Below are positions 698-64,000 of a stretch of DNA of 64,000 nt, one piece after another. The notes beneath the pieces were generated by a model that was given only the letters and a program-made list of their open reading frames with translations, ran no database searches and was not told the origin of the DNA. Source of the stretch: a virus (taxonomy: Duplodnaviria; Heunggongvirae; Uroviricota; Caudoviricetes); the IMG/VR virus record IMGVR_UViG_2909262264_000005; one strand, 5' to 3'. The first letter of the stretch is position 1, and every line of letters starts with the position of its first letter. The translations under genes were made by a program, and so were the position numbers.

Positions 698-1060
698 GGG
701 GCTGATTCTGGATTCGACGGGATTTGCGAAACCCAAGGTGCATGCCGAGGGGCGGTTGGCCTCGTAAAAAGCCGCAAAAAATAGTCGCAAACGACGAAAA
801 CTACGCTTTAGCAGCTTAATAACCTGCTTAGAGCCCTCTCTCCCTAGCCTCCGCTCTTAGGACGGGGATCAAGAGAGGTCAAACCCAAAAGAGATCGCGT
901 GGAAGCCCTGCCTGGGGTTGAAGCGTTAAAACTTAATCAGGCTAGTTTGTTAGTGGCGTGTCCGTCCGCAGCTGGCAAGCGAATGTAAAGACTGACTAAG
1001 CATGTAGTACCGAGGATGTAGGAATTTCGGACGCGGGTTCAACTCCCGCCAGCTCCACCA
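698..1060 (+). ncRNA. ssrA: tmRNA (SsrA)
   Basis: Starts GGGGCTGATTCTGGATTCGACGG, ends GGGTTCAACTCCCGCCAGCTCCACCA; internal tag reading frame gcaaacgacgaaaactacgctttagcagcttaa encodes ANDENYALAA-stop. Confidence 0.95.
1034..1060 (+). repeat. 27-bp att core at ssrA 3' end (left junction of tandem prophage array)
   Basis: cgggttcaactcccgccagctccacca is repeated exactly at 45414-45440 next to an integrase gene. Confidence 0.75.
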
Positions 1061-1183
1061 CTTTTGACAGGACCACAACCAGACAGAGACTATAAAAACA
1101 GTCACTTATGGACACTGACCAGACAGTGAGCGGACCAGAAAAAGACAAAAATATACACGCAAAATGCACGCGCATTTAAGAAA

Positions 1184-1217
1184 AGCCTCTGCTTATGAAG
1201 TCAGAGGCTTTTCTATT
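1184..1217 (+). terminator. Intrinsic terminator downstream of ssrA
   Basis: Hairpin agcctctg-cttatgaagt-cagaggct followed by tttctatttg. Confidence 0.55.
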
Positions 1218-1383
1218 TGTAACTAAGTGTAATAATTTAACATCCCCCACCATTGACGCAGTATCGAGAAATATCCCTGCAAGTTGTGTTGTTTCTTTCT
1301 GCGTCCCGACAGGGTGTTATGGTTCCCCACTTCTCTCGGGGCGGACACTTAACGGACGGGAAATTTTCAGGAGTCATTCAGAC

Positions 1384-1420
1384 GTGCTTCGCCCCCTGAT
1401 TGGCGAAGCACGCTTTTTTC
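1384..1420 (+). terminator. Intrinsic terminator (10-bp stem) closing a possible ~170-nt untranslated unit
   Basis: gtgcttcgcc-ccctgatt-ggcgaagcac followed by gctttttt. Confidence 0.55.
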
Positions 1421-1577
1421 TCAGCTTATTCCGTTTTGCCTGTGTGTTGAATAATTCCACTGCAGTTATATAAAATCGGTAACGGCTGGAAATCATTCAA
1501 TACTCGCACTATCGAAAGTTCACCAGCCAACCGCAGCACGTCCTGCATACGACGTGTCTGCGGTTTTTCTTTTTCGC

Positions 1578-2162
1578 TTACATTGTGTCTGGTCCTTCCG
1601 GCCACTCAATATCAGGTGCAGTTGATGTATCAACACGGTTCAGCAACACCCGATACTTCTTCCAGGCTTCCAGCAACGAGTTTTCTTCCTCCGTTGCAAT
1701 TTCCAGATCTGCAGCATCCTGAAGCGGCGCAATATGCTCACTGGCTACCTGCATCAGGTTGTTTTTTGTTTCTTCCGCCTCCCGGATCCGGAACAGTTTT
1801 TCTGCTTCCGTATCCTTCACCCAGGCTGTGCCGTTCCACTTCTGAAACTCCCCTTCCGGCGATAACCAGGTAACATTTTCCGGTAACGGACCGAGTTCAG
1901 AAATAAATAACGCGTCCCCTGACGCTACGTCATAAACCGTTTTACCCCGATGGTCTTCAACGAGATGCCACGATGCCTTATCACTGTTGAAAACAGCCAC
2001 AAAGCCAGCAGGAATATCTGGTGGTGCAATATCGGTACTGTTTGCTGGCAGACCTGTATGAGGCGGAATATATGCGTCACCTTCACCAATAAATTCATTA
2101 GTTCCGGCCAGCAGATTATAAATTTTTATGGTCCGTGGTTGTTCACTCATTCTGAATGCCAT
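1578..2162 (-). CDS. Tail fibre assembly protein (Tfa)
   Basis: 194-aa ORF directly downstream of the tail fibre gene; near-identical copy at 49601-50185. Confidence 0.8.
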
Positions 2163-4996
2163 TATGCAAGCCTCACAATATAGTTAAATGCGATGTTTTT
2201 GACGGTGTTTTCCGCGTTACCAGCAGCGTTAACGGTGATGGTGTGTCCATGTGAACCAATCGCAACGGAGTGCGTATGAGCACCAATACCGACAGTATGC
2301 GCGTGTGCACCTGCAGATGCTGCTGTGCCGGACAGTGAATGGCTATGATTACCATCTGTACTGGTATTCGCTAACCACCCCGTAGACATACCTACTGAGC
2401 CTTGTACACCCCAGGTATTTTGACCTGAGCTTGTATAACCATATTGATAAGTATCTTTAAAAACACTGGGGTTAAATCGACGGCCATCTCTATGGCTGTG
2501 ATTACCAGCTGCATTCGTGCTGCCACTTAAACTATGGGTATGCGCACCAGTGTTATTCGTGGATTTAGTGCCGTAATCAAACGACGATGTGGTTTTCGTC
2601 CCCAAATCCGTACTGGATGCGCTGGCGCTGTGGGTATGCGATTTAATGCCGTCCTGTTCCTGAGACAATACGGCCCGACCACTGGCAGGTTTGCCCTTAA
2701 TCGTCCAGCCACGCATATCAGGGATCACGCCTGACGGATAAGCGGCTGCAAGTTTCGGGTATGCAGATTTGTCAAAAGTCTGCCCCTGCATCAGGGCATA
2801 GCCAGACGGAACGGTATCTGATGGCCACGGGATTGGTGCGCCAGGCGGATAAAACTGCTCTGATGGCGTATAGAGTGAATAAACTGTACCGTCCGTTAAC
2901 CCTTCCGGCTTATTAGCAGAATATGCTGGTGACGTATGAATCGTCACGCTGGCATTACTGGTATAATCCCATTGAATATTTACACCAGTCGCATAATTTC
3001 CGATTGCAACGTAAATATCGTAAGTATCACCAGATGTATTGACCCAGGCAAAATTTGTAAACCCTGTCGATGTGCGCTGCCATAAAGCACCAGTAATCCC
3101 CTTCGGATTACCATTACCTGCACGTAAAACAAGTTCAGATATACCTGCCTGTTGAGGTGACCCCACGTTAAATCCAGCGCCACCAATCAACGTAATTGAA
3201 ACAACAGAACTCGCCTGTGGCATGGTTACCGTTGCTAATTTGAACCAACCAGCACCACCGCTGAATGACATTGTTGTTGAGTTAAGCGTACCAATATCTT
3301 TCGGCGTCAGTGTTATATCCGCTGAAAGCGCCTTACCATTCACCTTACGGGCAGAAGGTACCCGACCATTCGCATTGTCATTAGCTGCTTTCACTGCTTT
3401 CGGTGTCGCAGCAAGCGTTTCAGATGTGCTGTTGGTTGCACTACTGAGCTGGACAATTCCTTTCTGTGCTGTCGTTGCATCCTGTGCGGTGTATTTCCCG
3501 TTAGCCAGGTCATACGCGGCCTTAACGGCTTTTGGCGTTGCCGCCTGTGACTCGGAAGTGCTGTTGGTCGCACTGCTGAGCTGTACTATCCCCTTTTTCG
3601 TCGTGCTCGCATCCTCAAGCGCCACGGCGGATGCAATATCCTCTGCCCGTTTTGCTGCTGTCTCGGCGCGCGTTGCCGCGGATTCCGCCGTACTTTTGCT
3701 CTGTGCTGCCGCTGCCGCACTGCCAGCAGCCTCTGTCGCCTTCGTGGATGCCGTCGTGGCGCTGCCCCTCGCTGCTGACGCCTGTCTGGTCGCCTCATCT
3801 TTTGAAGCAGACGCAGATGATGCCGATGACGCCGCCGAACTGGCGGACGATGCGGCAGCCGTTTTTGAGGATTCTGCGCTGGTTTCCGACGCTTTCGCGT
3901 TCGTTTCGGATGTCTTCGCTGCGGAAGCAGACCTCGCTGCTGCGCTGGCCTGTTCAGTGGCTTCGCCAGCCTTCGTTGTGGCTGTTGAAGCAGACGATGC
4001 GGCACTTTCTGCCGACTTTCCGGCAGCGGTGGCACTGGCTGAGGCCTGCCCGGCACTTGTTGACGCGGCGCTGGCAGATGATGCAGCCGCTGTTTTTGAG
4101 CCTGCCGCAGCCGAGGCGCTCTGTCCCGCTGCCGTTTCAGAAGACCTGGCGTTCGTCTCGGACGTTTTTGCCGCCTTCGCGGAATTTCCTGCCGCCGTTG
4201 CCGAGGAAGCGGCACTACTGGCGCTTGATGATGCGTTCGTTTCTGATGATTTTGCCGCCTCTTTTGAAGCCGACGCATCCCGTGCTGAAGTGGCTGCTTC
4301 TGACGCTTTCGTAGTCGCGGTGGATGCAGAAGTGGCTGCTGATTGTTGTGACGCTGCCGCATTCGTTTCTGACGTTTTCGCCGCACCGGCACTGGTAGCC
4401 GCCGCGCTTTTTGAGGACTCTGCAGCGGCAGCACTTTTTAATGCTTCAGTGGCCTTTGTTGATGCCGTTCCTGCGCTGGAAGACGCTGACTGAGCCGACG
4501 AAGCAGCCTGTCCGGCTGACGTGCTGGCTGCGCGTGCTGAGCCTGCAGCATCAGTCGCATGGGTTGCCGCCTCACGGGCTGATGTGCTGGCATCGCTGGC
4601 TGACTTCTTCGCGGCTGCCGTGTTCTGTGCCACCGCGGACGCGTTACGCGCCACCTCTTCCACCATCAGTTCAAAACGGCGCAGTGCCTCAGGACGGGCA
4701 TCATCCTCCGTCATGGCACCGAGAAAATCATTCAGCGTACCGGGTCGGGAATCTTCATACACGGTGATGGTCCCGGCATGTGACGGCGGGAATCCTTCCA
4801 CCAACAGAATAACGCTGTACTGACCGTACTCAACGTCCATGCTGTAACGCCCGGCTTCATCCGGATTTTCTGAGGCCAGCGTGTTCACCACCACCGTGGT
4901 ACTGTTACGTTTTGCTTTCAGCTGGATTGTGCAGTTCTGTACCGGTTTTCCTGTGCCGTCTTTCAGTACACCTGAAATCTTTACTGCCATATTCAC
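2162..4996 (-). CDS. Side tail fibre protein
   Basis: 944 aa; long Ala/Ser/Thr-rich repetitive rod region; C-terminal His-rich HSHSLSG/HAHTVG motifs typical of lambdoid tail fibres. Confidence 0.85.
3400..4650. repeat. GC-rich tandem coding repeats (Ala/Ser/Thr-rich) inside tail fibre gene
   Basis: Repetitive gcngcn-type codon runs; produce long artefactual ORFs in other frames and on the opposite strand (3222-4493, 3586-4434). Confidence 0.6.
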
Positions 4997-5054
4997 CCCA
5001 CAAAAAAGCCCGCCTGAACCGGCGGGCTGTCATAACACTGTGTTACCTGGCTAA

Positions 5055-5654
5055 TCAGAATTTATAACCGACACCCACGATGAAACCGTCAGTGCGCCAG
5101 TCGCCACTGCCGGAACCTTCATAAGCGACATCAACGGCCACGGATTCGGTCGGGTTAAACTGCACGCCAGCCCCCCACGCCAGAGACGTGTTGCTGTGGC
5201 GACCGTCATCACTTCCGATCAGCACATCGTGCGTTTTCCCCGTATTGTCGGTCACCTGCAGATAATCCCCGGAGAAAGTCGACACACGGCTGTAAGCCAC
5301 ACCCGCCATCGCATACGCGCTGAACCATTCATTCACGCGCACAGACGGCCCCGCCATCACGCTGAACCAGCGGTTACGCACGGAATCTTCATGCCAGCGG
5401 GTATCGCTGTAATGCGTTTTTTGCTCATCTTCAGCGTTGGCATAACTGAATGACGTAATCAGCCCCAGCGTGTCCGTAAACTCATAACGGTATTTCACGT
5501 TAATCCCGTTCAGATTATCGCTGCCGGGAGCGTTCGTACGGGCATGAAGATACCCTGCGCTCAGTGTGGCCTGCTGCTCAGACGCCCATGCAGGCGCACC
5601 GGATACGGCCAGACAGATGGCTGCGGACAAAATGGCTGCACAAACTTTACGCAT
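5055..5654 (-). CDS. lom: Lom-like outer-membrane protein (Ail/Lom family)
   Basis: 199 aa with signal peptide, beta-barrel-like composition, C-terminal ...[10 protein letters not shown]; located between J and tail fibre as in lambda. Confidence 0.8.
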
Positions 5655-5721
5655 AATTACCTCTCGCTTTTCTGCAATAAAAAAGGCGCCATTTCTGGCG
5701 CCCGTATATGGGTTATAAAAT

Positions 5722-8700
5722 TCAGCTGATACTGATGCCTGCGGTGGCTTTCTTCATCACCACAACCAGCAAATCGCTGATACTTGCTGTGGGATACCAG
5801 TCATTTACCAGCCACGCTGACACCGAAAACTCCAGCGTCATGTGACCGTGACCAGCCGGCATATCAATAACACCACTGTAAATCAGCGTATTATCCAGCG
5901 CGGTACGGTTATAAATTTCAGCGCCGTTTTTCCGTACGATCAGACGGCATGAGGAGTAAATATCAGTATGCTCTTTCTCATGTTTAGCGCCACTGAATGC
6001 CACCGCCGGAATAACAATCTGCCGGTCAAACGGCTGATCGTCATAAACCCTGACGGTAATGGTTCCTGATGGCCACCGCTCCGGTGCACGGGAGTCCCGG
6101 GGGAAAGCTTTGCCCACTGTTTTAACGAGATCGCCTTCAATCTGGTTCGCGGACAGTTTTCCCAGAACCCGACAGTTCTCGTTAATCGTGACGTTGTTGA
6201 GCGTCCCGGAGTTCGCATTCACGTTACCGCTGATATCGGCATTTTTCGCCGTCAGCCGTCCGTCCGGTGTCAGGGAAAATGCCGGAGGATTACCGCCGCT
6301 GGTAATGGTCGGAGCCGTCAGGCGTTTCAGGAACACGTCGTTCATGAATATCTGATCGCCCTGACCAACAAACATTGGTCTTGTGTTGCCATTAGACGGA
6401 TCAATAAACGCGATACGGTTAGCGGCAACCAGGAACTGGCTCAGTTTGCCTTCCTCCGTATCCTCCATGCTGAGGCCAATACCCGCGACATAATGTTTGC
6501 CGTCTTTGGTCTGCTCAATTTTGACGCCCCACATGGCATTCCACTTATCACTGGCGTCCTTCCACTCTTTCGAAAACTCCTCCAGTTTGCTGGCGTTATC
6601 CTCCGTCAGCTCGACTTTTTCCAGCAGCTCCTTGCCGAGATGGGATTCGGTTATCTGGCCTTTGAAAAAATCCAGGTAACCTTCCGCATCATCGCTCGCC
6701 CGACCAACAGCCTCCACGAATGCCGATTTGCCAACGGTGTTCACACTGCGGATATAAAAGTAATAATCATGGCCCGGTTTGATATTGATACTGGCGGCTA
6801 TCCAGTACAGCGCCGTACCAAGATAGCGGGCTGTGGTTTCAACCTGCCTGATATCGGTAATCCGCTTTTCCGAGAACCAGAACTCAAACTGTACCGTCGG
6901 ATCATAAACCGCAAGATGCGGCGTGGCGGTGATCTGAAAATAGCCCGGCGTCAGCTCAATCCGCGACGGCGCTGCCGGTGCGGCAATCCGGAACGATACC
7001 GACGCCGGATCGCCCTGCTGTCCCCACGCATTTACCGCCCGGACTGTCAGCCTGTAGTTTCCCAGCGCCAGCTGCCTGAAGCGGTATGTGGTTTCCGTCG
7101 TCCGGGCCGTGCTGACCAGCCGCTCACTGCCGTCATCCGCTGCCACGGCCAGGCGAAGCAGGAAGCTCACGCCCTTCACCACCTTCGGCGTGTCCCAGCG
7201 CGCCAGCACCTGATATTCCCCGCTGTCTGCGGTGACTTCTGCGGTCAGGTGCTGCACTGCTGGCGGCGTGACACCATTCACCGTGCCGCTCTGGTCGCCG
7301 TCAAAGTGCGCCCCGTTATCCACGATGGCCTCTTTTTCCGGTACATGCTGCACGGCGGTGATGGCATACGTGCCGTCATCGTTCTCACGGATACTCACGC
7401 AGCGGAACAGGCGCTGGCGCAGCGTCGGCAGCTTCAGCCCCCACACGCTGTATTCAGCAACACCGTCAGGAACACGGCTCACTTTCACCTTCACGCCGTC
7501 GGTGACGGACTGGACCTCCACGCTGACCGGATTGCCATTTCCGTCAACCAGGCTTATCAGCGTGGTACCGGAGGATGGCAGCGTGATTTCACGGTCGAGC
7601 GTCAGCGTCCGGGTCTGGCTGTTCACCGCCAGCACGCGACCACCGGTGCTGATACCGGCATAGTCATCATCGCAGATTTCAATGACATCGCCCGGTACAT
7701 GGCGAAGCCCTTCAGCACCCACGCTGAAATCCACGGTCTGCGTCTCCAGCAGTTCCGTTTTAATCAGCCACAGCCCGGCGCGGTGTGCCTGCCCCCGGCT
7801 GGTACAGCCAAAGGCATCCATCTTCGTGACATTACGACCGTAACGGGCAATGGCCTGCGTATCTTCAACAAGCTCTGTCGCCGTCTCCCAGCCGTTGTTC
7901 GGGTCAATCCAGTTCACCTCAACGGCATTATGGCGGTCCTTCAGGGCGCTGAAGCTGTAGCGGAACGGCGCGCCATCATCCGGCATCACCACATTACTGC
8001 GGTTATAGGTCCACACCTTATCCGACGGTCGGTCCTGCACGAACGTCAGCGTCTGCCCGTTCCATACCGGCATACAGCGCATCGCCGAGCAGAAATCACT
8101 GAGCACATCCCACGCCTTGCGCTGTGTGGTCAGGTACGCATTACAGGTGATGCGCGGCTCCGTGCCGCCAAAGCCGTCCGGCACTGACTGGTCGCAGTAC
8201 TGGCCGATGACATACAGCGCCCATTTGTCCACATCCGCCGCACCAAGACGTTTCCCCATGCCGTAGCGCGGGTGGGTCAGCATATCCCACAGACACCAGG
8301 CCATGTTGTTGCTGTATGCTGGTTTTAACGTTCCGTCCCAGATACCGCTGTATTGTCGCGTCTGCGGGTTATAGTTCGACGGCACCTGCAGAATGCGCCC
8401 GCGAAGATGATAATTACGACTCACCTGCTGGCTGCCGAACTGCTCCGAGTCCACCTGTACGCCGACCAGTGCAGTGTTCGGGTAGCACTGTTTCACATCG
8501 ATGATTTCGGTGTATGACGACCAGAGCGTTTTGTTCTGCAGCTGGTCTGTGGTGCTGTCCGGCGTCATCCTGCGCATCCGTATATTGAACGGGCGCGGCG
8601 GCAGGTTACCCACCACCACCGAGGCCAGATACTGCGAGGTGGTTTTGCCCTTAATGGTGATGTCTTTTTCCGTCACCCAGCCACCATTACGCTGGATCTG

Positions 8701-9117
8701 AACCAGCAGGCGGACTTCCGACGGATTCCGGTCCCCCTTTGAGGTGGTTTCCACCAGTGCCTGCACACCGAAGGTAAAGCGCAGACGGTCGATGTTTGCA
8801 GACGTGATGGTCCGGGTAATCGGCGTGTCGTACTTCACTTCCGTACCCAGCACCGTCTCGGAGCCGGAGGATTCAAATCCCTCCGGCGGTGTCTGCTCCT
8901 GCTCACCGGCCCGGAAAACCACCGTGACACCGGAGATATTGGTATTCCCCTCACTGTCCAGCACCGGCGTACTGTTCAGCAGCACGCTTTTTAATCCGTC
9001 CACCGGACCTTCAACCGGCCCTTCACTGATGGCGTCTATCACGCTCAGCATCTGGGATGATTTCAGGTTGTCCTTCGCTTCGCGCGGGGTATGCCCCTTA
9101 CTGCTGCCTTTACCCAT
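5722..9117 (-). CDS. Host specificity protein J (central tail fibre)
   Basis: 1131 aa; position and length as lambda gpJ; paralogue at 54314-57796. Confidence 0.9.
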
Positions 9118-9177
9118 TCGTCATGCTCCATAAACGATAAAACCGCCCGGAGGCGGTTTCACATAAAACGTTTTTCA

Positions 9178-9819
9178 TCAGCGACCAATCACCACAACCT
9201 GACCACCATCCCCTTCGTCTGCCGTGCTGATCTCCTGAGAGACCACCCGCGACCCCACGCGCATTTCACCGTACAGAACGGGCAGAACATTGCCCTGGGC
9301 AACCATATTATCCAGTGAAGAAAAATAGGTGTTCTGTTTGCCGTTATCCGTTGTCTGTGTGCGGGGGGTTTTGGGTTTAGGAGCCAGCATCTGTGCAACA
9401 CCGCCAAGCGTCATACTGGCACCGAGAGAAAAAAGCAGATTACTCGCCATTATTCCTACCCCCGGCATCCATATAGCAACCGCCATAACAGCAGCTCCCA
9501 GCACTGCCTGAAACACACCGCCACTTTTGGCTCCTGCCAGACGCGGCACGATGTGGATCACTGCTCCATTCGCCAGCGGTTCATTAAGACGGGCTGATAA
9601 TTCGTTTTCGCCTGCATCACGCCCGGCAATGCGCACCTGATACCAGCCGTCGCTCAGTTTCTGACGAAACGCCGGAAACTGCATAGCCAGCGCCCGGATG
9701 GCTTCGGCTCCCGTTTTCACACGCAGATCGATGCGGCGACCAAATCGTTGTAAATCCCCGTAAAGGCAGATGCGTGCCATGCCCGGTGACGCCAGAGGGA
9801 GTGTGTGCGTCGCTGCCAT
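9178..9819 (-). CDS. Tail assembly protein I
   Basis: MAATHTLPLASPGMARICLYGDLQRFGRRIDLRVKTGAEA... recognised as lambda gpI-like. Confidence 0.8.
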   Translation of the reverse strand: MAATHTLPLASPGMARICLYGDLQRFGRRIDLRVKTGAEAIRALAMQFPAFRQKLSDGWYQVRIAGRDAGENELSARLNEPLANGAVIHIVPRLAGAKSGGVFQAVLGAAVMAVAIWMPGVGIMASNLLFSLGASMTLGGVAQMLAPKPKTPRTQTTDNGKQNTYFSSLDNMVAQGNVLPVLYGEMRVGSRVVSQEISTADEGDGGQVVVIGR

Positions 9820-10460
9820 TTGTCGGTATACCTCTCTCGTTTGCTCAGTTGTTCAGGAATATGGTGCAGCAGCTCGCCGTCACCACAGTAAATGGCGGCA
9901 TGATTCGGCACCGATGAACCAAAACAGCACAACAGCACATCGCCCGGTTGTGCTGATGACAACGGCACCTGATACAGCCCCGTGGCCTCCAGATTATCCA
10001 GATAGAGATTCTGACCGTTACGCCACCAGTCATCCCCGCGATGAAAATCCGGCATCTCAATCCCCGCCAGATGATAAGCATCCCGGAACAGCGTGTAACA
10101 GTCCGTCACCCCGTGCTCAAAGCGTCGCCCGGTAAGATGCGGCACACTGCGAAATTTATGAATCTCACCCCGGCAGACCAGCCACCAAGGCAAATCGCTC
10201 TGCACCTGCAGCCGCCGGTCGGCCTCACTCAGCCAGGGCAGACCACCGGGGTGGCTGTGGACCAGCGCCACAATCTCACCCTGCATCTCTGCCCACAGCC
10301 AGTCCTCCGGCGACATCCGGAAATACGCCTCCGGCTCACCGGAGATATTCACGCAGGGAAAATATCTTTCCCCTTCCGGCGTTCTCACCACGAAGCCGCA
10401 CGACTCCGCTGGCGCACATCGCCGGGCGTGCGCCAGAATCGCTGATTCTGTCTGTGTCAT
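9717..10460 (-). CDS. Tail assembly protein K (NlpC/P60 and MPN/JAB-like domains)
   Basis: MTQTESAILAHARRCAPAESCGFVV... with HSHP motif; 3' end overlaps the gpI-like gene. Confidence 0.8.
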   Translation of the reverse strand: MTQTESAILAHARRCAPAESCGFVVRTPEGERYFPCVNISGEPEAYFRMSPEDWLWAEMQGEIVALVHSHPGGLPWLSEADRRLQVQSDLPWWLVCRGEIHKFRSVPHLTGRRFEHGVTDCYTLFRDAYHLAGIEMPDFHRGDDWWRNGQNLYLDNLEATGLYQVPLSSAQPGDVLLCCFGSSVPNHAAIYCGDGELLHHIPEQLSKRERYTDKWQRRTHSLWRHRAWHASAFTGIYNDLVAASICV

Positions 10461-10465
10461 GGGAT

Positions 10466-14725: not shown

Positions 14726-14765
14726 TCTCCGGACGAAAAAAAACCGCCGAAGCGGTTATGTTGAC

Positions 14766-53647: not shown

Positions 53648-54247
53648 TCAGAATTTATAACCGACACCCACGATGAAACCGTCAGTGCGCCAGTCGCCAC
53701 TGCCGGAGCCTTCATAAGCAATATCAATGGCCACGGATTCGGTCGGGTTAAACTGCACGCCAGCTCCCCACGCCAGAGACGTGTTGCTGTGGCGACCGTC
53801 ATCACTTCCGGTCAGCACGTCGTGCGTTTTCCCCTTGTTGTCAGTTACGCGGAGATAATCCCCGGAGAAAGTCGACACACGGCTGTAAGCCACGCCTGCC
53901 ATCGCATACGCGCTGAACCATTCATTCACGCGTACAGACGGCCCCGCCATCACGCTGAACCAGCGGTTACGCACGGAATCTTCATGCCAGCGGGTATCGC
54001 TGTAATGGGTCAGCTGGCGATTCTTGTCTCCTGCATAGCTGAACGACGTCACCATCCCCAGTGTGTCCGTAAACTCATAACGGTATTTCACGTTAATCCC
54101 GTTCAGATCATCACTGCCGGGAACGTTCGTCCGGGCATGAAGATACCCCGCGCTCAGCGTGGACTGATGTTCAGACGCCCATGCAGGCGCACCGGATACG
54201 GCCAGACAAATGGCTGCGGACAAAATGGCGGCATAAAGTTTACGCAT
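53648..54247 (-). CDS. lom: Lom-like outer-membrane protein
   Basis: 199-aa paralogue of the prophage A Lom. Confidence 0.8.
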   Translation of the reverse strand: MRKLYAAILSAAICLAVSGAPAWASEHQSTLSAGYLHARTNVPGSDDLNGINVKYRYEFTDTLGMVTSFSYAGDKNRQLTHYSDTRWHEDSVRNRWFSVMAGPSVRVNEWFSAYAMAGVAYSRVSTFSGDYLRVTDNKGKTHDVLTGSDDGRHSNTSLAWGAGVQFNPTESVAIDIAYEGSGSGDWRTDGFIVGVGYKF

Positions 54248-54313
54248 AATTACCTCTCGCTTTTCTGCAATAAAAAAGGCGTCATTTCTGACGCCCGTTC
54301 TGGGTTATAAAAT

Positions 54314-57300
54314 TCAGCTGATACTGATACCTGCTGTGGATTTTTTCATCACCACAACCAGCAGATCGCTGATACTGGTTGTTGGTGTCCAGTTATTCGC
54401 TCCTGATGAAGATACGGTGAATGTCAGTGTCAGCGTCCCCTGTCCGGCAGGCATATCTATAACTGAGGAAAATACGCCCTGAGCATCCGTCGTGGACTGA
54501 TTAAAAATCTCCTGACCATTGCGGGTCACTCTTAACCGGCAGGTTGAATACCAGTATGACTGTTGGTTATTACTGTTGAAATTCTCATGCTTACCACCGC
54601 GGAATAACACTGGCGGTATCATGACCTGCCGGTCAAATTTCTGATCATCACTGATTCTTACCGTGATGGTGCCACTGGCATAACTGTTCGTGCGGGGGAA
54701 AGACTTGCTGACCGTTTTGACAATATCGCCTTCAATCTGATTGGCTGACAGTTTCCCCTTAATCTGACAGTTCTCATTAATCGTGACATTGTTGAGCGTC
54801 CCGGAGTTCGCATTCACACTGCCACTGATATCCGCATTTTTAGCAGTCAGCTTTCCGTCCGGTGTCAGGGAAAATGCCGGAGGATTACCGCCGCTGGTAA
54901 TGGTGGGAGCCGTCAGATATTTCAGGAACACTTCATTCATGAATATCTGATCGCCCTGACCAACAAACATCGGCTTTGTGTTGCCATTCGCAGGATTAAT
55001 CATCGCAATCCTGTCTGCCGCCAGCAGCACCTGACTCTGCATGCCGTCGGGGGTGTTCTCAATACCGGCACCGATACCCGCAATATAAAGGCGTCCGTCC
55101 TGCATCTGCTGCAGCTTCACTGCCCACATGCTGTTCAGGTTATTATTTGTATCAACCTGAACCTTCTGTATCTGCTGGATCGCTGCACTCTGGTCTTCCA
55201 GTTTCTTATTGACGGTCTGTGTTATTTCATTGCTGACATCCGTTATGGACGTCCTGATTTCAGTCAGGTCAGGCGCAAGCTGACCGTTATCAATCTGCGT
55301 CCACAGCTCCTGAGCCAGATGGGTTTTCCCTATCTCGCCTTTGAAAAAATCCAGATAGCCTGATGCATCATCACTCGGCTGACCGACAGCCTCCACGAAT
55401 GCCGATTTGCCAACGGTGTTCACACTGCGAACGTAAAAATAATAATCATGGCCCGGTTTGATATTGATACTGGCGGCTATCCAGTACAGCGCCGTACCAA
55501 GATAACGCGCGCTGGTTTCAACCTGCCTGATATCGGCAATCCGCGTTTCCGAGAACCAGAACTCAAACTGTACCGTCGGATCATAAACGGCAAGATGCGG
55601 TATGGCGGTTATCTGAAAATAGCCCGGCGTCAGCTCAATCCGCGACGGTGCTGCCGGTGCGGCAATCCGGAACGATACCGACGCCGGATCGCCCTGCTGT
55701 CCCCACGCATTTACCGCCCGGACCGTCAGCGTGTAACGCCCCAGCGCCAGTTGCCTGAAGCGGTATGTGGTTTCCGTCGTCCGGGCCGTGCTGACCAGCC
55801 GCTCACTGCCGTCATCCGCTGTTACGGTCAGACGGAGCAGGAAGCTCACGCCCTTCACCACCTTCGGCGTGTCCCAGCGCGCCAGCACCTGGTATTCCCC
55901 GCTGTCTGCGGTGACTTCTGCGGTCAGGTGCTGCACTGCTGGCGGCGTGACACCATTCACCGTGCCGCTCTGGTCGCCGTCAAAGTGCGCCCCGTTATCC
56001 ACGATGGCCTCTTTCTCCGGCACATGCTGCACAGCGGTGATGGCATACGTGCCGTCGTCATTCTCACGGATACTCACGCAGCGGAACAGGCGCTGGCGCA
56101 GCGTCGGCAGCTTCAGCCCCCACACGCTGTACTCGGCAACGCCGTCAGGAACACGGCTCACTTTCACCTTCACGCCGTCGGTGACGGACTGGACCTCCAC
56201 GCTGACCGGATTGCCACTTCCGTCAACCAGGCTTATCAGCGTGGTACCGGAGGATGGCAGCGTGATTTCACGGTCGAGCGTCAGCGTCCGGGTCTGGCTG
56301 TTCACCGCCAGCACGCGCCCGCCGGTGCTGATACCGGCATAGTCATCATCACAGATTTCAATGACATCGCCCGGTACATGGCGAAGCCCTTCGGCACCCA
56401 CGCTGAAGTCCACGGTCTGCGTCTCCAGCAGCTCCGTTTTAATCAGCCACAGCCCGGCTCGGTGTGCCTGCCCCCGGCTGGTACAACCAAAGGCATCCAT
56501 CTTCGTGACATTACGACCGTAACGGGCAATGGCCTGCGTGTCCTCCACAAGCTCTGTCGCCGTCTCCCAGCCGTTGTTCGGGTCAATCCAGTTCACCTCA
56601 ACGGCATTATGGCGGTCTTTCAGGGCGCTGAAGCTGTAGCGGAACGGCGCGCCATCATCCGGCATCACCACATTACTGCGGTTATAGGTCCACACCTTAT
56701 CCGACGGTCGGTCCTGCACGAACGTCAGCGTCTGCCCGTTCCATACCGGCATACAGCGCATCGCCGAGCAGAAATCACTGAGCACATCCCACGCCTTGCG
56801 CTGTGTGGTCAGCCAGGCATTACAGGTGATGCGCGGCTCCGTGCCGCCAAAGCCGTCCGGCACCGACTGGTCGCAGTACTGGCCGATGACATACAGCGCC
56901 CATTTATCCACATCCGCCGCACCAAGACGTTTCCCCATGCCGTAGCGCGGATGGGTCAGCATATCCCACAGACACCAGGCCATGTTGTTGCTGTATGCCG
57001 GTTTAAACGTTCCGTCCCAGATACCGCTGTATTGCCGCGTCTGCGGGTTATAATTCGACGGCACCTGCAGAATACGCCCGCGCAGATGATAATTACGGCT
57101 CACCTGCTGGCTGCCGAACTGCTCCGAGTCCACCTGCACGCCGACCAGTGCCGTGTTCGGGTAGCACTGTTTCACATCGATAATTTCGGTGTATGACGAC
57201 CAGAGCGTTTTGTTCTGCAGCTGGTCTGTGGTGCTGTCCGGCGTCATCCTGCGCATCCGGATACTGAACGGGCGCGGCGGCAGGTTATCCACCACCACCG

Positions 57301-57796
57301 AGGCCAGATACTGTGAAGTGGTTTTACCCTTAATGGTGATGTCTTTTTCCGTCACCCAGCCACCGTTACGCTGAATCTGAACCAGCAGGCGGACTTCCGA
57401 CGGATTCCGGTCACCCTTTGAGGTGGTTTCCACCAGTGCCTGCACACCGAAGGTAAAGCGCAGACGGTCGATGTTTGCAGACGTGATGGTCCGGGTGATC
57501 GGCGTGTCGTATTTCACTTCCGTACCCAGCACCGTCTCGGAACCGGAGGATTCAAATCCCTCCGGCGGTGTCTGCTCCTGCTCACCTGCCCGGAACACCA
57601 CCGTGACACCGGAGATGTTGGTATTCCCCTCACTGTCCAGCACCGGTGTACTGTTCAGCAGCACGCTTTTTAATCCATCCACCGGACCTTCAATCGGCCC
57701 TTCGCTGATGGCATCGATCACACTCAGCAACTGCGTGGATTTCAGGTTATCCTTCGCTTCGCGCGGGGTATGCCCCTTACTGCTGCCTTTACCCAT
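54314..57796 (-). CDS. Host specificity protein J
   Basis: 1160 aa; first ~830 residues near-identical to prophage A J, C-terminal region divergent. Confidence 0.9.
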
Positions 57797-57856
57797 TCGT
57801 CATGCTCCATAAACGACAAAACCGCCCGGAGGCGGTTTCACATAAAACATTTTGCA

Positions 57857-58504
57857 TCAGCGACCAATCACCACAACCTGACCACCGTCCCCTTCGTCTG
57901 CCGTGCTGATCTCCTGAGAAACCACCCGCGACCCCACACGCATTTCACCGTACAGAACAGGCAAAACATTGCCCTGAGCAACCATGTTATCCAGTGAGGA
58001 GAAATAGGTGTTCTGTTTGCCGTTATCTGTACTGGCTGCCGTGGGCGTCCTGGCTTTCGGTGCCAGCATCTGGGCCACACCACCCAGGATCATACTGGCC
58101 CCTGCCGCATACATGCCCGATACAGCCGCAGCACCCAGCCAGCCCACAGGGTTCCACCATGCCACCGCAATCAGCGCCGCCCCCAGCACCACCTGAAACA
58201 CACCGCCACTTTTAGCTCCCGCCATACGCGGCACGATGTGAATCACGGCACCATTTTCCAGCGGCTCATTAAGACGGGCAGATAATTCATTTTCTCCCGC
58301 ATCACGCCCGGCAATGCGCACCTGATACCAGCCCTCATTCAGTTTCTGGCGAAACGACGGAAGCTGTGTGGCCAGCGCCCGGATGGCTTCAGCCCCCGTT
58401 TTCACACGAAGGTCGATGCGGCGGCCAAATCGTTGTAAATCCCCGTAAAGGCAGATGCGTGCCATGCCCGGTGACGCCAGAGGGAGTGTGTGCGTCGCTG
58501 CCAT
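57857..58504 (-). CDS. Tail assembly protein I
   Basis: Paralogue of prophage A gpI-like protein. Confidence 0.8.
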   Translation of the reverse strand: MAATHTLPLASPGMARICLYGDLQRFGRRIDLRVKTGAEAIRALATQLPSFRQKLNEGWYQVRIAGRDAGENELSARLNEPLENGAVIHIVPRMAGAKSGGVFQVVLGAALIAVAWWNPVGWLGAAAVSGMYAAGASMILGGVAQMLAPKARTPTAASTDNGKQNTYFSSLDNMVAQGNVLPVLYGEMRVGSRVVSQEISTADEGDGGQVVVIGR

Positions 58505-59145
58505 TTGTCGGTATACCTCTCTCGTTTGCTCAGTTGTTCAGGAATATGGTGCAGCAGCTCGCCATCACCACAGTAAATGGCGGCATGATTCGGCACCGAT
58601 GAACCAAAACAGCACAGCAGCACATCGCCCGGCTGCGCCTCTGTCAGTGCGACACGGTAAAAACCAGTCGCCTCCATATTGTCAAGATAGAGATTCTGGC
58701 CGTTACGCCACCAGTCATCTCCGCGATGAAAATCCGGCATCTCAATTCCCGCCAGATGGTATGCATCCCGGAACAGCGTGTAACAGTCCGTCACCCCGTG
58801 CTCAAAGCGCCGCCCGGTAAGATGTGGCACACAGCGGAACTTGTGAATCGCCCCGCGGCAGACCAGCCACCACGGCAAATCACTCTGCACCTGCAGCCGC
58901 CGATCGGCCTCACTCAGCCAGGGCAGACCACCGGGATGACTGTGGACCAGCGCCACAATCTCACCCTGCATTTCTGCCCGCAGCCAGTCCTCCGGAGCCA
59001 TCCGGAAATACGCCTCCGGCTCACCGGAGATATTCACGCAGGGAAAATATCTTTCTCCCTCCGGCATTCTCACCACGAAGCCGCACGACTCCGCTGGCGC
59101 ACATCGCCGGGCGTGCGCCAGAATCGCTGATTCTGTCTCTGTCAT
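58402..59145 (-). CDS. Tail assembly protein K
   Basis: Paralogue of prophage A K. Confidence 0.8.
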   Translation of the reverse strand: MTETESAILAHARRCAPAESCGFVVRMPEGERYFPCVNISGEPEAYFRMAPEDWLRAEMQGEIVALVHSHPGGLPWLSEADRRLQVQSDLPWWLVCRGAIHKFRCVPHLTGRRFEHGVTDCYTLFRDAYHLAGIEMPDFHRGDDWWRNGQNLYLDNMEATGFYRVALTEAQPGDVLLCCFGSSVPNHAAIYCGDGELLHHIPEQLSKRERYTDKWQRRTHSLWRHRAWHASAFTGIYNDLAAASTFV

Positions 59146-59150
59146 GGGAT

Positions 59151-59852
59151 TTACTGCGAAAGTTTGTTAATGGAAAGGTAACCGCCAAAGTTGCCGACGT
59201 TATTGCGAAACTTACAGCCGCTAAGGCATTTGCTGCATTTATCCTTCGTGATATCGGACGTCGGCTGGTCATATTCATCCGCGACTGCCGGACCGTGATA
59301 ACCGCACTCATCACCGCGATAGGTCCAGGTGCAGGTGTTGGCCAGCATGATACGCCCCGGAAAAACAGCACCGTCCGTTTCCGTCGGCGTGGACAGTACA
59401 AAAGAAGCACTGACCGCACTCAGTTCACTGCACTGCTCGATGCGCCAGCTGCTGATCACCTCCTGCTCCTGGTCGGCATCACTGTTTCCGTTGACGAAGT
59501 TCACCGCATCCAGAAAACGGGCGTAAACCTTACGCCGGACCACCGTTCCGCCGACCAGACTCTGCAGATCTTCCGCCATACCGGTGACCATACCGTGCAG
59601 GTTAGAAACCGTCAGTGTCGGACGGGCAGCACTGCCCTTGCCGTTCAGTTCAAATCCTGTCCCCTGAATGGGGTATGCCTGATACTGCCGCCCCTGCCAG
59701 GTGACCGGCTCACCTTTTTCGTTCTGCTCATTACATAAAAAATAACGTTCACCACCGACCTCTGTCAGATCGATTTCCCAGAGCACCACCTGGGCTGACT
59801 GAGTGAGGCGTGTCGTCTCATGATGTGTTTCCTGTGGAATATCCTGCATCAT
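59151..59852 (-). CDS. Minor tail protein L
   Basis: Paralogue of prophage A L. Confidence 0.8.
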   Translation of the reverse strand: MMQDIPQETHHETTRLTQSAQVVLWEIDLTEVGGERYFLCNEQNEKGEPVTWQGRQYQAYPIQGTGFELNGKGSAARPTLTVSNLHGMVTGMAEDLQSLVGGTVVRRKVYARFLDAVNFVNGNSDADQEQEVISSWRIEQCSELSAVSASFVLSTPTETDGAVFPGRIMLANTCTWTYRGDECGYHGPAVADEYDQPTSDITKDKCSKCLSGCKFRNNVGNFGGYLSINKLSQ

Positions 59853-59858
59853 GGCCTC

Positions 59859-60188
59859 CTATGCCACGACCTGTTCAAAATCTGCCGTTATGGTTACCCA
59901 CAGCGCCCCCACGCTTGCCGACCATTTACGACAAACCACCCTAATCGGCTTCCAGTCATAAGGTGGCGTCCACTGAAATGCGCGGACGCCACCGTGCCGT
60001 TCCAGAAAGGCTTTTAAAGATGGGTGTTCACATTTACGAACACGTATCGTCACGCTGTAAGTCGACAACTGGTTATTCAGTCCCGCCGCACGACGCTGTT
60101 CATAACCATCGCCCAGCTTCACTGTCACCACTTTCGGTTCTGATACCACATTCATATCCGGGCGCACTTTCCAGTGAAACGTCTCCAT
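59859..60188 (-). CDS. Minor tail protein M
   Basis: METFHWKVRPDMNVVSEPKVVTVKLGDGYEQRRAAGLN...; resembles lambda gpM. Confidence 0.75.
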   Translation of the reverse strand: METFHWKVRPDMNVVSEPKVVTVKLGDGYEQRRAAGLNNQLSTYSVTIRVRKCEHPSLKAFLERHGGVRAFQWTPPYDWKPIRVVCRKWSASVGALWVTITADFEQVVA

Positions 60189-63100
60189 TACCGATATGCT
60201 CCACTTAACCGACCACCATCACGGGCCTGCTGTTGCATAAAGTCCGCTGCCGCTTTTTTCCCGAGGTCATAAACCACCTTCAGGGCAGCCGGACCTATCT
60301 GCCCGTTCGTGCCATCGTTATTGATCTCGATGTTGTACTGCGGGGCAAACATCGCCATACCTGAACCACCAATATCCGCCACAACCCCCAGCTTACCGTC
60401 AGCACCACGACGCAGTGGCAGAATGGCTTCAGGTCCAGCTTCCCCCATCACACCTGCACCTTTTGCAAAAGCAAAAAACGTCGGACGGTTAACCACCGTG
60501 CCACTGTAGCGACTCAAATCAGCAGACTGATAAACACCACCATCAGCATTGGGCGTCACACTGGCAGTTGCTGCACTCCCCCAGCCAAACGCCGAACCAA
60601 TCCCCTTAACTGCCTGCATCATGGACATCTGGGCCATGATTTTTGCCAGATCAGAAAGGAGCGAGGCGGTAAAAGATTTGAAGTTCAGTTTTCCGGTAGT
60701 ACAGAACGTTGCCAGTGCATTACCTGCACTGTTAAATGCCGCTGTAAGCATCTGCTCAGCAGTGCCTGCCGCATTATCCGCATCTGCCGTGAAATTCTGA
60801 AACGCCCGCATAGCACCGTTTTTCCAGTTACCCTGAGCAATTTCAAGCTGTTGCCAGTAACGGCGATTCTCATTCAGTTGTCGGTTCAGGCTCTCCGTCA
60901 GCGCCTGCTCGGCCTTTCTGTAGTCATCCGTGTTATATGTCCCTTTCTGCTCACTATCCCGCCTCAACTGCTCCAGCTGTTGCTGGTATTTCTGGCGAAG
61001 ACTCAGTTGTACCTGATATCGCTGCCGCTGCTGATCACCCATACCCACCGTGGCGATATCCAGGTCATGTTGCTGACGCTGAGCGCGCTCTTCTTCAGCC
61101 AGTTGACTGGTCAGCTGAATTGTTTTTTTCTTCAGCTCGTTGAGTGCCGTCTGTTTCTGAAGCTCCTGCTGTTTTACATCCAGCAGCGTCAGTGCCTGAA
61201 TCAGTTCATCTTTACGGGCCAGCACACTCTTTTCATCTGCCGTCAGTTTTTTCCCGTCCAGGTCGCTGATGCGCTGCTGCAGAGCCAGAAGCTGTTTATG
61301 CGCTTCTGTCATCTTTTCAGTGGCAATGCCTGCTGACTGTCTTGCAGCAGCAATCTGCCCTTCCACCTGTGCCTGTTGCTGACTGTACTGCATCAATAAC
61401 CGGGTGGCCTCATCATTACGGGTTTCGCGTGTTTTTTTCTTACCGGATGCCAGGGCTTTCTCGTAACGTTCATTTTCACGTTGTATCGCCGCATCCCTGA
61501 CAGCCTGGTCGGCGTACTGCATGGCATTAATACGCGCAATTTCACGCTGATGTCGTGCTGCTTCCGTTTCATTCATCCGGTTCAGTGCAGCATTTTCAGC
61601 ATTACGTCGTTTCTGTTGCTCCTGATAATTCCGCTCTGCCTGCTCTTTTGCATCCTGCAAATCCTTCTGGCGTTTTTTCTCCTGAAGATCGTTAAGACGC
61701 TGCTGATCGTATTCAACCTGAGAAGATGATGCCGTCCAGGGGAGTCTTTTCGCCCGCGACACTTTCTCCTGTAAAGCGGCAATCTGTTCATCCAGCGAGT
61801 CTTCACGACCAATATTCATGGCCGCATCCCAGAAACGACTCCACAAATCAGACAGATACTTCAGCGTACTGCCAAGCGCATTGAGGTTATTATCAATATC
61901 CGCAGTACGCCGACCGGTTTCCTCTGCCAGTGCAGACATGGCTATCCGTGCAGCATCACTGGACCGTCCCTGATCCCCAAGGACACGTATCTGCTCAAGC
62001 TGAGTGGCAGTAAGAAAATGCAGCTCATTGTCCAGAGCCTTCGCGGCATTTACAGGATCATCCTTCAGCCGCTTAAACTGATTTATGGTATCGCTGACCG
62101 ACTGGCCAACCGATCGCTCCATCTGTGCGGCAGCTCTCGCCACCATACCGATATCGTTTCCACGAAATGCACCACTCCCCACCACCTGAGCCAGCGCACC
62201 GGCTGCAGCATGTTGCGTGATACCATTCCCGGAAATAGCACGACTAAGCGTCCACAGCTGCCCGGCAGTGACTCCGGCATAATGCCCCGTCAGCGACAAC
62301 TGGCGGTTAAATTCTTCCCCCTCCTTCTGACCGTCATACCAGGCTTTACCCAGACCATAGACGGCCGCGGCAATACCGCCAATAACCCCGCCCAGCATCA
62401 TGCCTTTCGGTGACATCAGTGTGTCTATCCATCCGGCACGGTTAGCCAGCGTTATCCCGGATCCCCTCAGCGCACCTAAATTGCCGCGAGCCAGTTCACC
62501 TATCAGAACGCCTATCTCCTGGCGGGCCGCTGCACTTTTCAGACCCAGCGAATGCGTGGCTTTTCCTGCCTGCTCCATTTTGCGGATATACACTTCTGCA
62601 GCACTGCTTACCCCCAGTTGGGCAGCCTTAGCACGAAGCAACTCAGAAGAAGAAAGATTCTGGCGGGTTGCCTGCTCTTTAAGCTGACGGATAAACGCCA
62701 CTTTCTGTCGGGTAGCCTCTTCCTCAGCCTGTGTAAGAACACGGGTTTTCGCCGTAACCTCAGAAATCAGCGCCAGATAATCCTGCTGACCAATCCCGCC
62801 ACTGTGTCTGGCCTGTCGGATCTGCTGCTGAATACGCTGTAATTCCTGCAGCCCCGCACTGGCCTGTTTCACACTGTCAATCTGACGATAAAACGCAGCA
62901 GCCGCTTTATCCTGAGCCTCCGCCAGAGCCATGGCCTGCGCCTGTTCATCGCGCATTTTCTGGCTCAGCGCCTCCATGCGCTGGCGGGTTTTCTCCACCT
63001 CGCGAGCCATGCGTTCATGAGCCTGTGCGTTCTTCTCCACCGTCTGCGCATGGACGGAGGCGGCTGTTGCAGCCGAAGAAGCCGCCTGCGTTGTCTGCCG

Positions 63101-63292
63101 GGCGGCCTGAGTCTGACGCTCCATAAAACGCTGCATACGGGCAGAAGACCGTTCTGCATCGCTGGCTGCACCATTCAGAAGGTTTTTGATACGGGGAATT
63201 TCATTTTTAAACTCTGCCGCATCAATCCCCAAATCAATGACCAGGTTGGCTATCTGGTCCATAACGCACACCTCCGGAAATACCTTCTCCAA
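60188..63292 (-). CDS. Tail tape measure protein H
   Basis: 1034 aa, coiled-coil-rich. Confidence 0.85.
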   Translation of the reverse strand: MEKVFPEVCVMDQIANLVIDLGIDAAEFKNEIPRIKNLLNGAASDAERSSARMQRFMERQTQAARQTTQAASSAATAASVHAQTVEKNAQAHERMAREVEKTRQRMEALSQKMRDEQAQAMALAEAQDKAAAAFYRQIDSVKQASAGLQELQRIQQQIRQARHSGGIGQQDYLALISEVTAKTRVLTQAEEEATRQKVAFIRQLKEQATRQNLSSSELLRAKAAQLGVSSAAEVYIRKMEQAGKATHSLGLKSAAARQEIGVLIGELARGNLGALRGSGITLANRAGWIDTLMSPKGMMLGGVIGGIAAAVYGLGKAWYDGQKEGEEFNRQLSLTGHYAGVTAGQLWTLSRAISGNGITQHAAAGALAQVVGSGAFRGNDIGMVARAAAQMERSVGQSVSDTINQFKRLKDDPVNAAKALDNELHFLTATQLEQIRVLGDQGRSSDAARIAMSALAEETGRRTADIDNNLNALGSTLKYLSDLWSRFWDAAMNIGREDSLDEQIAALQEKVSRAKRLPWTASSSQVEYDQQRLNDLQEKKRQKDLQDAKEQAERNYQEQQKRRNAENAALNRMNETEAARHQREIARINAMQYADQAVRDAAIQRENERYEKALASGKKKTRETRNDEATRLLMQYSQQQAQVEGQIAAARQSAGIATEKMTEAHKQLLALQQRISDLDGKKLTADEKSVLARKDELIQALTLLDVKQQELQKQTALNELKKKTIQLTSQLAEEERAQRQQHDLDIATVGMGDQQRQRYQVQLSLRQKYQQQLEQLRRDSEQKGTYNTDDYRKAEQALTESLNRQLNENRRYWQQLEIAQGNWKNGAMRAFQNFTADADNAAGTAEQMLTAAFNSAGNALATFCTTGKLNFKSFTASLLSDLAKIMAQMSMMQAVKGIGSAFGWGSAATASVTPNADGGVYQSADLSRYSGTVVNRPTFFAFAKGAGVMGEAGPEAILPLRRGADGKLGVVADIGGSGMAMFAPQYNIEINNDGTNGQIGPAALKVVYDLGKKAAADFMQQQARDGGRLSGAYR

Positions 63293-63563
63293 GATGCATC
63301 AGTTCTTCGTCCGTTCGCTCCGGTATCCCGTTCTCTTCCGGTAAAAGGCTGAAATCAGCCACCGCAGCATCACTGCTGCCGGACACCATTCTCACGATCA
63401 ATGCCTTCAGCGAGGCAAACTGCGCATCCATCCACACATCACTGAAGCTCTGCATCCGGAAATAATCGCCCCACTCACCAAGCTCAGTGGCCGACATTTC
63501 CGACAGCATCCGCCGCCAGTCTGCCCGCCGGAACTCCCGGGCAAGCCGCATGACAAACTGCAT
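63234..63563 (-). CDS. Tail assembly chaperone T portion (G-T frameshift product)
   Basis: In -1 frame relative to G; continuous with G via slip at ccg gaa aag. Confidence 0.55.
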   Translation of the reverse strand: MQFVMRLAREFRRADWRRMLSEMSATELGEWGDYFRMQSFSDVWMDAQFASLKALIVRMVSGSSDAAVADFSLLPEENGIPERTDEELMHLGEGISGGVRYGPDSQPGH

Positions 63564-63571
63564 TTCCCGCG

Positions 63572-64000
63572 TCAGGACTTTTCCGGCGTCAGCGCCTCAT
63601 GCTCATCATCCCCGGCATTATCAATGGCCCCCATACCGCTCAGCGACAGAACCATCTCCGCCCCCGCACCCAGGGCATCATACGACCATGTTGTAATAAC
63701 GGATGCGCAAAGCGTCTCTACATCCTTAGACTGATCCGCATTCCACAGTGAGCGGGAAACCAGCCAGGCATTGATATCCATCCCCATCCGCAGAAAAGCA
63801 ATCTGTCGTTCAGCCTCCGGCAGTTCTCCCTCCCCGGCATCAAACTTTGCCGTTCGCTGCTGAACAAACGCCAGATATTCAATTCTCTGCAGCCCGGACA
63901 GCTCACTGAGCACCACGGACTGTTTTTCATAATTAAACGTGCCCTGTTTCAGAAACATCATGTTCTCCACCTGCAAAAAAGCCCCGAATAACCGGGGCAA
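63572..64000 (-). CDS. Tail assembly chaperone G (5' end truncated by window edge)
   Basis: Acidic protein directly upstream of the T-frame ORF. Confidence 0.65.
   Translation of the reverse strand: MPRLFGAFLQVENMMFLKQGTFNYEKQSVVLSELSGLQRIEYLAFVQQRTAKFDAGEGELPEAERQIAFLRMGMDINAWLVSRSLWNADQSKDVETLCASVITTWSYDALGAGAEMVLSLSGMGAIDNAGDDEHEALTPEKS

Follow-up and report, generated by a model that had tools for sequence, protein, structure and literature searches.

Tandem prophages that share one attachment (att) site, and ssrA, the transfer-messenger RNA (tmRNA) gene, as an integration hot spot, are textbook features of Escherichia coli, and Williams' 'Traffic at the tmRNA gene' of 2003 is said to describe multiple elements at ssrA in this species. 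Here we describe a stretch of 64,000 nucleotides (hereafter the window) from the Caudoviricetes virus record IMGVR_UViG_2909262264_000005, in which two lambdoid prophages, A and B, lie one behind the other next to ssrA. The array very probably arose when two heteroimmune phages, both using the 3' end of ssrA as att site, integrated site-specifically one after the other.

The Islander survey lists 125 tandem arrays at tRNA and tmRNA genes (tDNAs), with the tmRNA gene as the most enriched target (PMC4383910), and tandem integration at a shared att site is the traditional explanation for prophage tandems in E. coli (PMC8112680). Arrays of the Islander type have an intact tDNA at one end, 3' fragments in the same orientation between their members, a tyrosine integrase beside the fragment and a crossover in the region from the T-stem and T-loop to the 3' end. 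The locus described here is alike in these respects and shows no difference in kind; none of the other assemblies searched showed A paired with B. The tandem lambdoid prophages of Shiga toxin-producing and enteropathogenic E. coli (Nakamura et al. 2021, PMC8112680, and the O157 Sakai literature cited there) are likewise two adjacent prophages at a common att site, and their related tail genes are open to prophage-prophage recombination. That study reports prophage-in-prophage integration as new, whereas A and B form a plain tandem at the chromosomal att site. The array is defined by the following elements:

1-483, plus strand: smpB, host gene upstream of ssrA (open reading frame, ORF)
698-1060, plus strand: ssrA (tmRNA gene), intact integration target (ARAGORN and Rfam)
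1034-1060, plus strand: att core copy 1, last 27 nt of ssrA, attL of prophage A (exact 27-mer)
1061-1230, plus strand: P' arm of A (sequence reading and motif search)
43945-44154, plus strand: Xis (excisionase) of A (phrog_2917, E 1.5e-40)
44109-45281 (longer start 44082), plus strand: Int A, tyrosine integrase of A (Pfam and phrog_1, 5e-65)
45282-45413, plus strand: P arm of A, between the int stop codon and core 2
45414-45440, plus strand: att core copy 2, displaced 3' fragment of ssrA, attR of A and attL of B (exact 27-mer)
45441-45598, plus strand: B-type P' arm, 100% identical to the sequence after ssrA in E. coli MB06171

ssrA is present at full length and forms the intact end of the array. 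ARAGORN detected the tag peptide ANDENYALAA, which is of the E. coli type, Rfam model RF00023 matched over its full length with 295.8 bits, and the smpB-ssrA stretch is 100% identical to its counterpart in MB06171, where SmpB is annotated. The 27-mer core (CGGGTTCAACTCCCGCCAGCTCCACCA) occurs in two exact copies in the window, both on the plus strand, and the identity ends abruptly on either side of it. It comprises the greater part of the T-stem together with the T-loop, the acceptor-stem 3' strand and the terminal CCA, and belongs to the 'T-stem region' class of tDNA attachment sites in the Islander database (PMC4383910). The second copy represents the displaced tDNA fragment, which keeps the orientation of ssrA and closes prophage A on its far side; the prophage occupies the 44.4 kb between the two cores (1061-45413). 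A third copy was not found in the 64-kb window with up to 3 mismatches allowed (0 expected by chance).

Int A, a protein of 390-399 amino acids (aa), has its stop codon 132 bp left of core 2. It matches the Pfam domains Phage_integrase (PF00589, residues 215-382) and Arm-DNA-bind_2 (PF12167, residues 21-88), and candidate catalytic residues were recognised in the translation within GLRSSE, QTRHTF, MGHK and RHYGSY. With a predicted C-terminal catalytic and N-terminal arm-binding domain, Int A conforms to a lambda-Int-type tyrosine recombinase.

The sequences right of cores 1 and 2 differ, yet they have a significant local motif in common 50-60 nt downstream of the core, GGACACyGACCAGACrGTGAG (score 36, compared with 16.4 +/- 2.1 and a maximum of 26 for shuffles). 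The P' arm of A contains ACCAGACAGnGA repeats at 1078-1089 and 1118-1129 and, behind the regenerated ssrA, a terminator-like hairpin at ~1183-1212; the B-type arm contains a ACCAGACGGTGA motif at 45509-45520 and a terminator hairpin at ~45568-45598. All three matches of ACCAGACRGWGA in the window fall within the two arms, and the arm repeats may be arm-type integrase sites. The A-type P' arm also follows ssrA in enterotoxigenic E. coli (ETEC) strains from pigs that carry A-like prophages, and the core in another tandem described below (L031). The P arm of A directly adjoins int and does not vary among the contigs that carry the same Int A. Approximately 110 bp of the B-type arm were detected inside the free phage Ayreon (L026 4003-4110), adjoined by an integrase that is unrelated and without an ssrA core. 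Because the arm occurs in a free phage, the sequence right of core 2 is phage DNA. A ~155-bp version of this arm, 95-97% identical, also lies behind A-like prophages in genomes without B (L003, L005-L010, L012, L014) and always ends near the same point, with ypjA or glaH next. We therefore rejected these 155 bp as a marker for B.

Prophage B starts at 45441 and runs off the window end at 64000. The 18.6 kb from 45414 to 64000 are 99.6% identical (77 mismatches, 2 gaps) to the prophage directly after ssrA in MB06171. At full length, this B-like prophage encodes a LexA-like repressor, Q, lysis genes, a terminase, a portal, a protease-capsid fusion and an integrase of 391 aa that is 69% identical to Int A and reads toward the att site. 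It ends with a third core (CGGGTTCAACTCCCGCCAGC-CCACCA), a degenerate ssrA fragment with a 1-nt deletion, behind which a P4-type-integrase island and then ypjA follow, so that MB06171 has a tandem array of its own at ssrA. Two small cargo genes, of 82 and 272 aa, lie between the integrase and this ssrA fragment, which are ~1.45 kb apart (L004 14400-17053), and the similarity of the third fragment to ssrA reaches further 5' (TTCGGACaCGGG...) than the 27-nt core of A. Between A and the B relative, the repressors have only the S24 peptidase part in common. This suggests different immunities of A and B, which would permit double lysogeny. Next to its arm, B carries three cargo genes, which RefSeq also annotates in MB06171:

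45669-46883, plus strand: EcoRII-like restriction endonuclease (Pfam EcoRII-N/EcoRII-C, PF09217 and PF09019, E 1e-61 to 1e-71)
46918-48393, minus strand: C5 cytosine methyltransferase (Pfam DNA_methylase and DNA_meth_N, PF00145 and PF18284)
48758-49531, plus strand: LEM-3-like GIY-YIG protein (Pfam LEM-3_GIY-YIG)

The two-domain endonuclease beside a C5 methyltransferase is what a type IIE EcoRII restriction-modification system would comprise, and we predict such a system here. The same end, with the EcoRII-like, C5 methyltransferase and GIY-YIG genes, was seen directly beside ssrA in hundreds of complete genomes and thousands of assemblies, and the EcoRII-like endonuclease was indexed in 3,748 blocks. 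The bodies that follow the EcoRII/Dcm/GIY-YIG module differ by genome (loci L015-L024) and contain either Mu/P2-like baseplate genes and an invertase or lambda-like tails.

The sequence-only reading of this DNA had proposed polylysogeny at a single att site, with an att core at 1034-1060 and 45414-45440, the integrase of prophage A adjoining the second copy and phage-arm-like sequence to the right of it. The exact 27-mer search returned both cores, Int A was found to end next to core 2 as proposed, and the phage character of the sequence to the right is borne out by Ayreon, though this arm is a widespread relic and not alone proof of B. Polylysogeny is supported by prophage A, which has its own Xis and Int and is bounded by ssrA and a fragment in the same orientation, and by the 99.6% identical full-length prophage that sits alone next to ssrA in MB06171, as it does in many further complete E. 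coli genomes.

We directly observed the two cores, the gene content and, for each prophage, homologous elements that are single at ssrA elsewhere. In the mechanism that we propose, the attP of each phage would hold a copy of the last ~27 nt of ssrA (T-arm and acceptor 3' strand), and a lambda-type tyrosine integrase with an arm-binding domain would recombine this attP with the 3' sequence of ssrA. The phage copy would regenerate an intact ssrA, then followed by a phage-supplied terminator, and the displaced fragment would go to the far end of the prophage. As the phage would bring both the 3' end of the gene and a terminator, ssrA would stay intact. Both junctions of the first prophage would keep the core, so that a second heteroimmune phage of like att specificity could integrate alongside, resulting in the order ssrA-core-[A]-core-[B]-(core). 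Integration of A into attL of a resident B or of B into attR of a resident A would lead to the same structure, and the order is undecidable from the window. We infer that the integrases caused the arrangement and that A and B are heteroimmune. Int and Xis acting at cores 1 and 2 should free A, and at cores 2 and 3 should free B.

To compare the tails of the two prophages we used blastn. The tail annotation of A (1578-11550) was transferred from the prophage of ETEC4085, to which it is 95-99% identical, and that of B from MB06171; all genes listed are ORFs.

1578-2162, minus strand: A, tfa
2162-4996, minus strand: A, side tail fibre
5055-5654, minus strand: A, lom
5722-9117, minus strand: A, J
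9178-9819, minus strand: A, I
9717-10460, minus strand: A, K
10466-11164, minus strand: A, L
11164-11550, minus strand: A, M
49601-50185, minus strand: B, tfa
50185-53589, minus strand: B, fibre
53648-54247, minus strand: B, lom
54314-57796, minus strand: B, J
57857-58504, minus strand: B, I
58402-59145, minus strand: B, K
59151-59852, minus strand: B, L
59859-60188, minus strand: B, M
60188-63292, minus strand: B, tape measure
63234-63563, minus strand: B, T
63572-64000, minus strand: B, G (partial)

The comparison revealed three colinear blocks on the same strand with an offset of ~48 kb:

B 49552-50865 = A 1529-2842: block 1, 97.9% over 1314 bp (tfa, C-terminus of the fibre)
B 52102-55130 = A 3509-6535: block 2, 87.8% over 3050 bp (N-terminus of the fibre, lom, C-terminus of J)
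B 55300-59851 = A 6620-11166: block 3, 92.7% over 4559 bp (rest of J, I, K and L)

The similar region of A thus extends from 1529 to 11166 and comprises ~8.9 kb of colinear homology, while M and H of the two prophages are essentially unrelated. According to the sequence-only reading, the tail modules were near-identical over kilobases. This applies only to the 1.3-kb block (97.9%); elsewhere the identity is 88-93%. Its list of similar genes (tfa, parts of the fibre, lom, most of J, I, K and L) agrees with the blastn blocks, and its view of the tail modules as substrates for homologous recombination is in line with the exact runs, of which 77 reach 30 bp or more and the longest 690 bp (1961-2650 = 49984-50673). 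J has 1131 aa in A and 1160 aa in B; the difference of 29 aa maps to a stretch that cannot be aligned (6535-6620 vs 55130-55300), and the frame is open. Inside both tfa genes, Rfam reported IS009 (RF02111) on the minus strand, at 1621-1819 (223 bits) and 49644-49842 (229 bits); this 'RNA' family therefore falls on a coding stretch that is conserved in tail fibre assembly genes.

RecA acting on the direct tail repeats could delete ~48 kb and leave a single chimeric prophage, or could make chimeric phages. The deleted interval would comprise A without its tail tip and the restriction-modification cargo of B. No sign that such a deletion or chimera formation has occurred at this locus was seen in the window, and the tail comparison, including ETEC4085 and the prfC prophage of E. 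coli A38, gave no evidence of recombination between A and B. A similar situation is known from the tandems of SXT/R391 integrative and conjugative elements at prfC, in which related elements at one att site are substrates for chimera formation (PMC2786100). Those elements are conjugative and their recombination was shown by experiment, whereas for the phages A and B it is a possibility only.

We searched for the array in other genomes. The junction of Int A, core and EcoRII was not found in 5,426 complete E. coli genomes (megablast of 44000-47000; no place at least 80% covered), and a gapped exact pattern for the P arm of A joined to B-specific sequence was not found in metagenome contigs of the Joint Genome Institute (JGI) or in GTDB species representatives. 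Exact-protein look-ups, in which 23-27 contigs each were read and which do not prove absence, did not reveal the A/B junction among 23 contigs with identical Int A or via the EcoRII-like enzyme. Other arrays with identical Int A were detected. Four of these consist of an A-type prophage and a P4-type-integrase island (L011, L013, L033, L036). In L031 (Logan ERR3991134, 3173-3560), an A-type P' arm and the tail-fibre end of a second lambdoid prophage lie behind the P arm of A and the core, which we read as an independent tandem at ssrA of two phages sharing an attP type. The kind of arrangement is therefore recurrent, and the A/B pairing is strain-specific within the searches made.

Three points weigh against sequential integration. 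The integrase and third core of a full-length B would lie past 64000 and are predicted from the MB06171 relative; the 155 bp right of core 2, which also occur in genomes without B, would not alone prove the integration of B; and, as the junction was not found in any search set, the A/B arrangement rests on this one assembly. The A/B junction could in principle be an assembly chimera, in which strains or haplotypes with A alone and B alone were merged through the shared core and arm (27 + ~155 bp). A-only genomes have the order P arm of A, core and 155 bp, B-only genomes ssrA, core and 155 bp, and this ~180-bp repeat could mislead an assembler on a mixed sample; the junction is, moreover, in no other assembly searched. 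However, the structure is exactly as expected from site-specific integration, L031, L011 and L013 hold comparable tandems with the same Int A, there is one ssrA per genome, all junctions in the window are mutually consistent, and far longer tail repeats, with the 690-bp identical run, were resolved and did not collapse. A chimera is thus extremely unlikely. We also consider it quite unlikely that B is a decayed remnant, or a restriction-modification defence islet fused to a tail module, without an integrase or att site of its own here. The window contains just cargo and tail genes of B, the EcoRII/Dcm/GIY-YIG module precedes quite different prophage bodies elsewhere, including some with Mu/P2-like baseplate and invertase genes, and many genomes that lack B retain the 155-bp arm as a relic. 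On the other hand, every tail ORF of B within the window is intact and as long as its MB06171 counterpart, and the identity to that integrase-bearing full-length prophage is 99.6% over 18.6 kb with 2 gaps.

The tail similarity might also stem from duplication within the genome or from recent gene conversion between A and B, in place of two independently acquired related phages. Block 1 contains a perfect run of 690 bp within 97.9% identity, and A equals B at 2314-2650, where the closest A-type relative, the ETEC4085 prophage, is very different. The fibre sequence of A is, however, 100% identical over 1869-3440 to that of the prfC prophage of E. coli A38, which in turn is 100% identical to B over 1669-2650; the fibre/tfa module occurs at ~97% identity in more than 1,000 complete genomes, and the two prophages differ by 7-12% in the remaining tail and have unrelated M and H genes. 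Such an origin of the tail similarity is hardly credible. Local conversion as a source of the 690-bp run and of 2314-2650 was rejected, as the A38 prfC prophage, itself unrelated, carries the same sequence. Given this prophage and the more than 1,000 genomes with the module, the identical run is best read as a module circulating among lambdoid prophages, for which a local exchange would be unnecessary. It may further be speculated, although we regard this as unlikely, that the B-type arm and the EcoRII/Dcm/GIY-YIG genes form a landing-pad and defence module at ssrA, semi-autonomous and long-lived, which would persist beyond the prophages joined to it. The module would be kept as a relic after prophage loss, serve again as the right attB half for A-type phages and be swapped among prophages with quite different tails. 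If this were true, the landing-pad module, and not independent whole-phage integrations, would shape the composition of the tandem array at ssrA.

Prophage A seems complete apart from an insertion sequence in a gene that is probably dispensable. Its further gene content is as follows:

11498-26057, minus strand: tape measure, tail shaft, HK97-type head, portal, TerL/TerS (P27-type), HNH and lysis genes (Pfam, PHROGs, homology)
26741-26815, minus strand: phage-borne tRNA-Gly(tcc) (ARAGORN and Rfam RF00005)
27640-30275, plus strand: IS21-family insertion sequence, ~2.6 kb (Pfam)
27757-29403, plus strand: istA, 548 aa, longest ORF (Pfam rve and Mu-transpos_C_2)
29177-30175, plus strand: istB, 332 aa, longest ORF (Pfam IstB_IS21)
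31523-32620, plus strand: OmpC-like porin (Pfam Porin_1, 514 bits)
32810-33193, minus strand: Q (Pfam/PHROGs, as for all following genes)
33447-34877, minus strand: DnaB-type helicase
34835-35725, minus strand: helicase loader
36998-38508, minus strand: Ash/Ant-type regulators
38983-39279, minus strand: Cro-like
39348-40040, plus strand: CI-like S24 repressor, divergent from the Cro-like gene
40178-40597, plus strand: CII-like
42285-43112, plus strand: SPFH

Prophage A has CI/Cro immunity, Q, a lysis cassette and H, M, L, K, I, J, lom, stf and tfa in lambda order, as expected for a lambdoid phage; its head and terminase are of the HK97/P27 type and not of the lambda type. On the minus strand, M is followed by the tape measure, G/T, the major tail protein and tail-completion genes, then by the head module (connector, capsid, protease, portal), TerL, the P27-type TerS, an HNH endonuclease, an M15 endolysin and holins. 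Within 11498-26057, Pfam matches were obtained for TerL, Terminase_4, HNH, Phage_capsid and Peptidase_M15_4 and a PHROGs match for the major tail protein, and homologues of this region are found in the ETEC4085 prophage and in phages phi467, PhiR49_2 and phiP27. The early region (31523-45281), which also encodes a helix-turn-helix replication protein and whose left operon has Xis and Int as its last genes, is 97% identical to annotated ETEC prophages. Rfam detected an adjacent C4 antisense RNA (37418-37505, 84 bits) and isrK (37530-37606, 63 bits), both on the minus strand, within and upstream of the Ash/Ant-type regulator genes. This suggests P1/P7-style antirepressor control on top of a CI/Cro phage. 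The OmpC-like porin gene is placed between Q and the late genes, and the ETEC4085 relative also has a porin gene and the same annotated tRNA-Gly(tcc). No stx genes and no type III secretion system effector cargo were seen in the window.

The IS21 element splits an N6/N4 DNA methyltransferase gene into two fragments (27033-27671 and 30172-30723), both of which match N6_N4_Mtase; the gene is uninterrupted in the ETEC4085 prophage. The left end of the element carries five tandem ~23-nt copies of a TGGCAT...CGATCA repeat and its right end inverted copies.

The closest relatives of A are prophages of ETEC from pigs and of bovine strains, where they sit singly at ssrA; they are 86-99% identical, mosaic and have the same P' and P arms. 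Among phage records, phi467, PhiR49_2 and phiP27 are closest to A, and the tail of B is 95% identical to those of mEp460, Ayreon and cdtI. The structural modules of these phages are 92-96% identical in nucleotide sequence over 37-66% of the queried stretches; their genomes are mosaics, and coverage of the A or B query stays below 80% for every phage record. A and B are both mosaics of well-represented modules.

The tandem prophage phenomenon at ssrA is already known, and the locus adds nothing new in kind and has little significance beyond strain-level annotation. Short-read assemblies can break or collapse at the IS21 copy and in the ~9 kb of directly repeated tail homology, and homologous recombination could delete ~48 kb of the array. 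The occurrence of the same fibre allele at prfC in another strain indicates that tail modules are exchanged across the population, and the locus provides a clean example of phage attP fragments regenerating the tmRNA gene.

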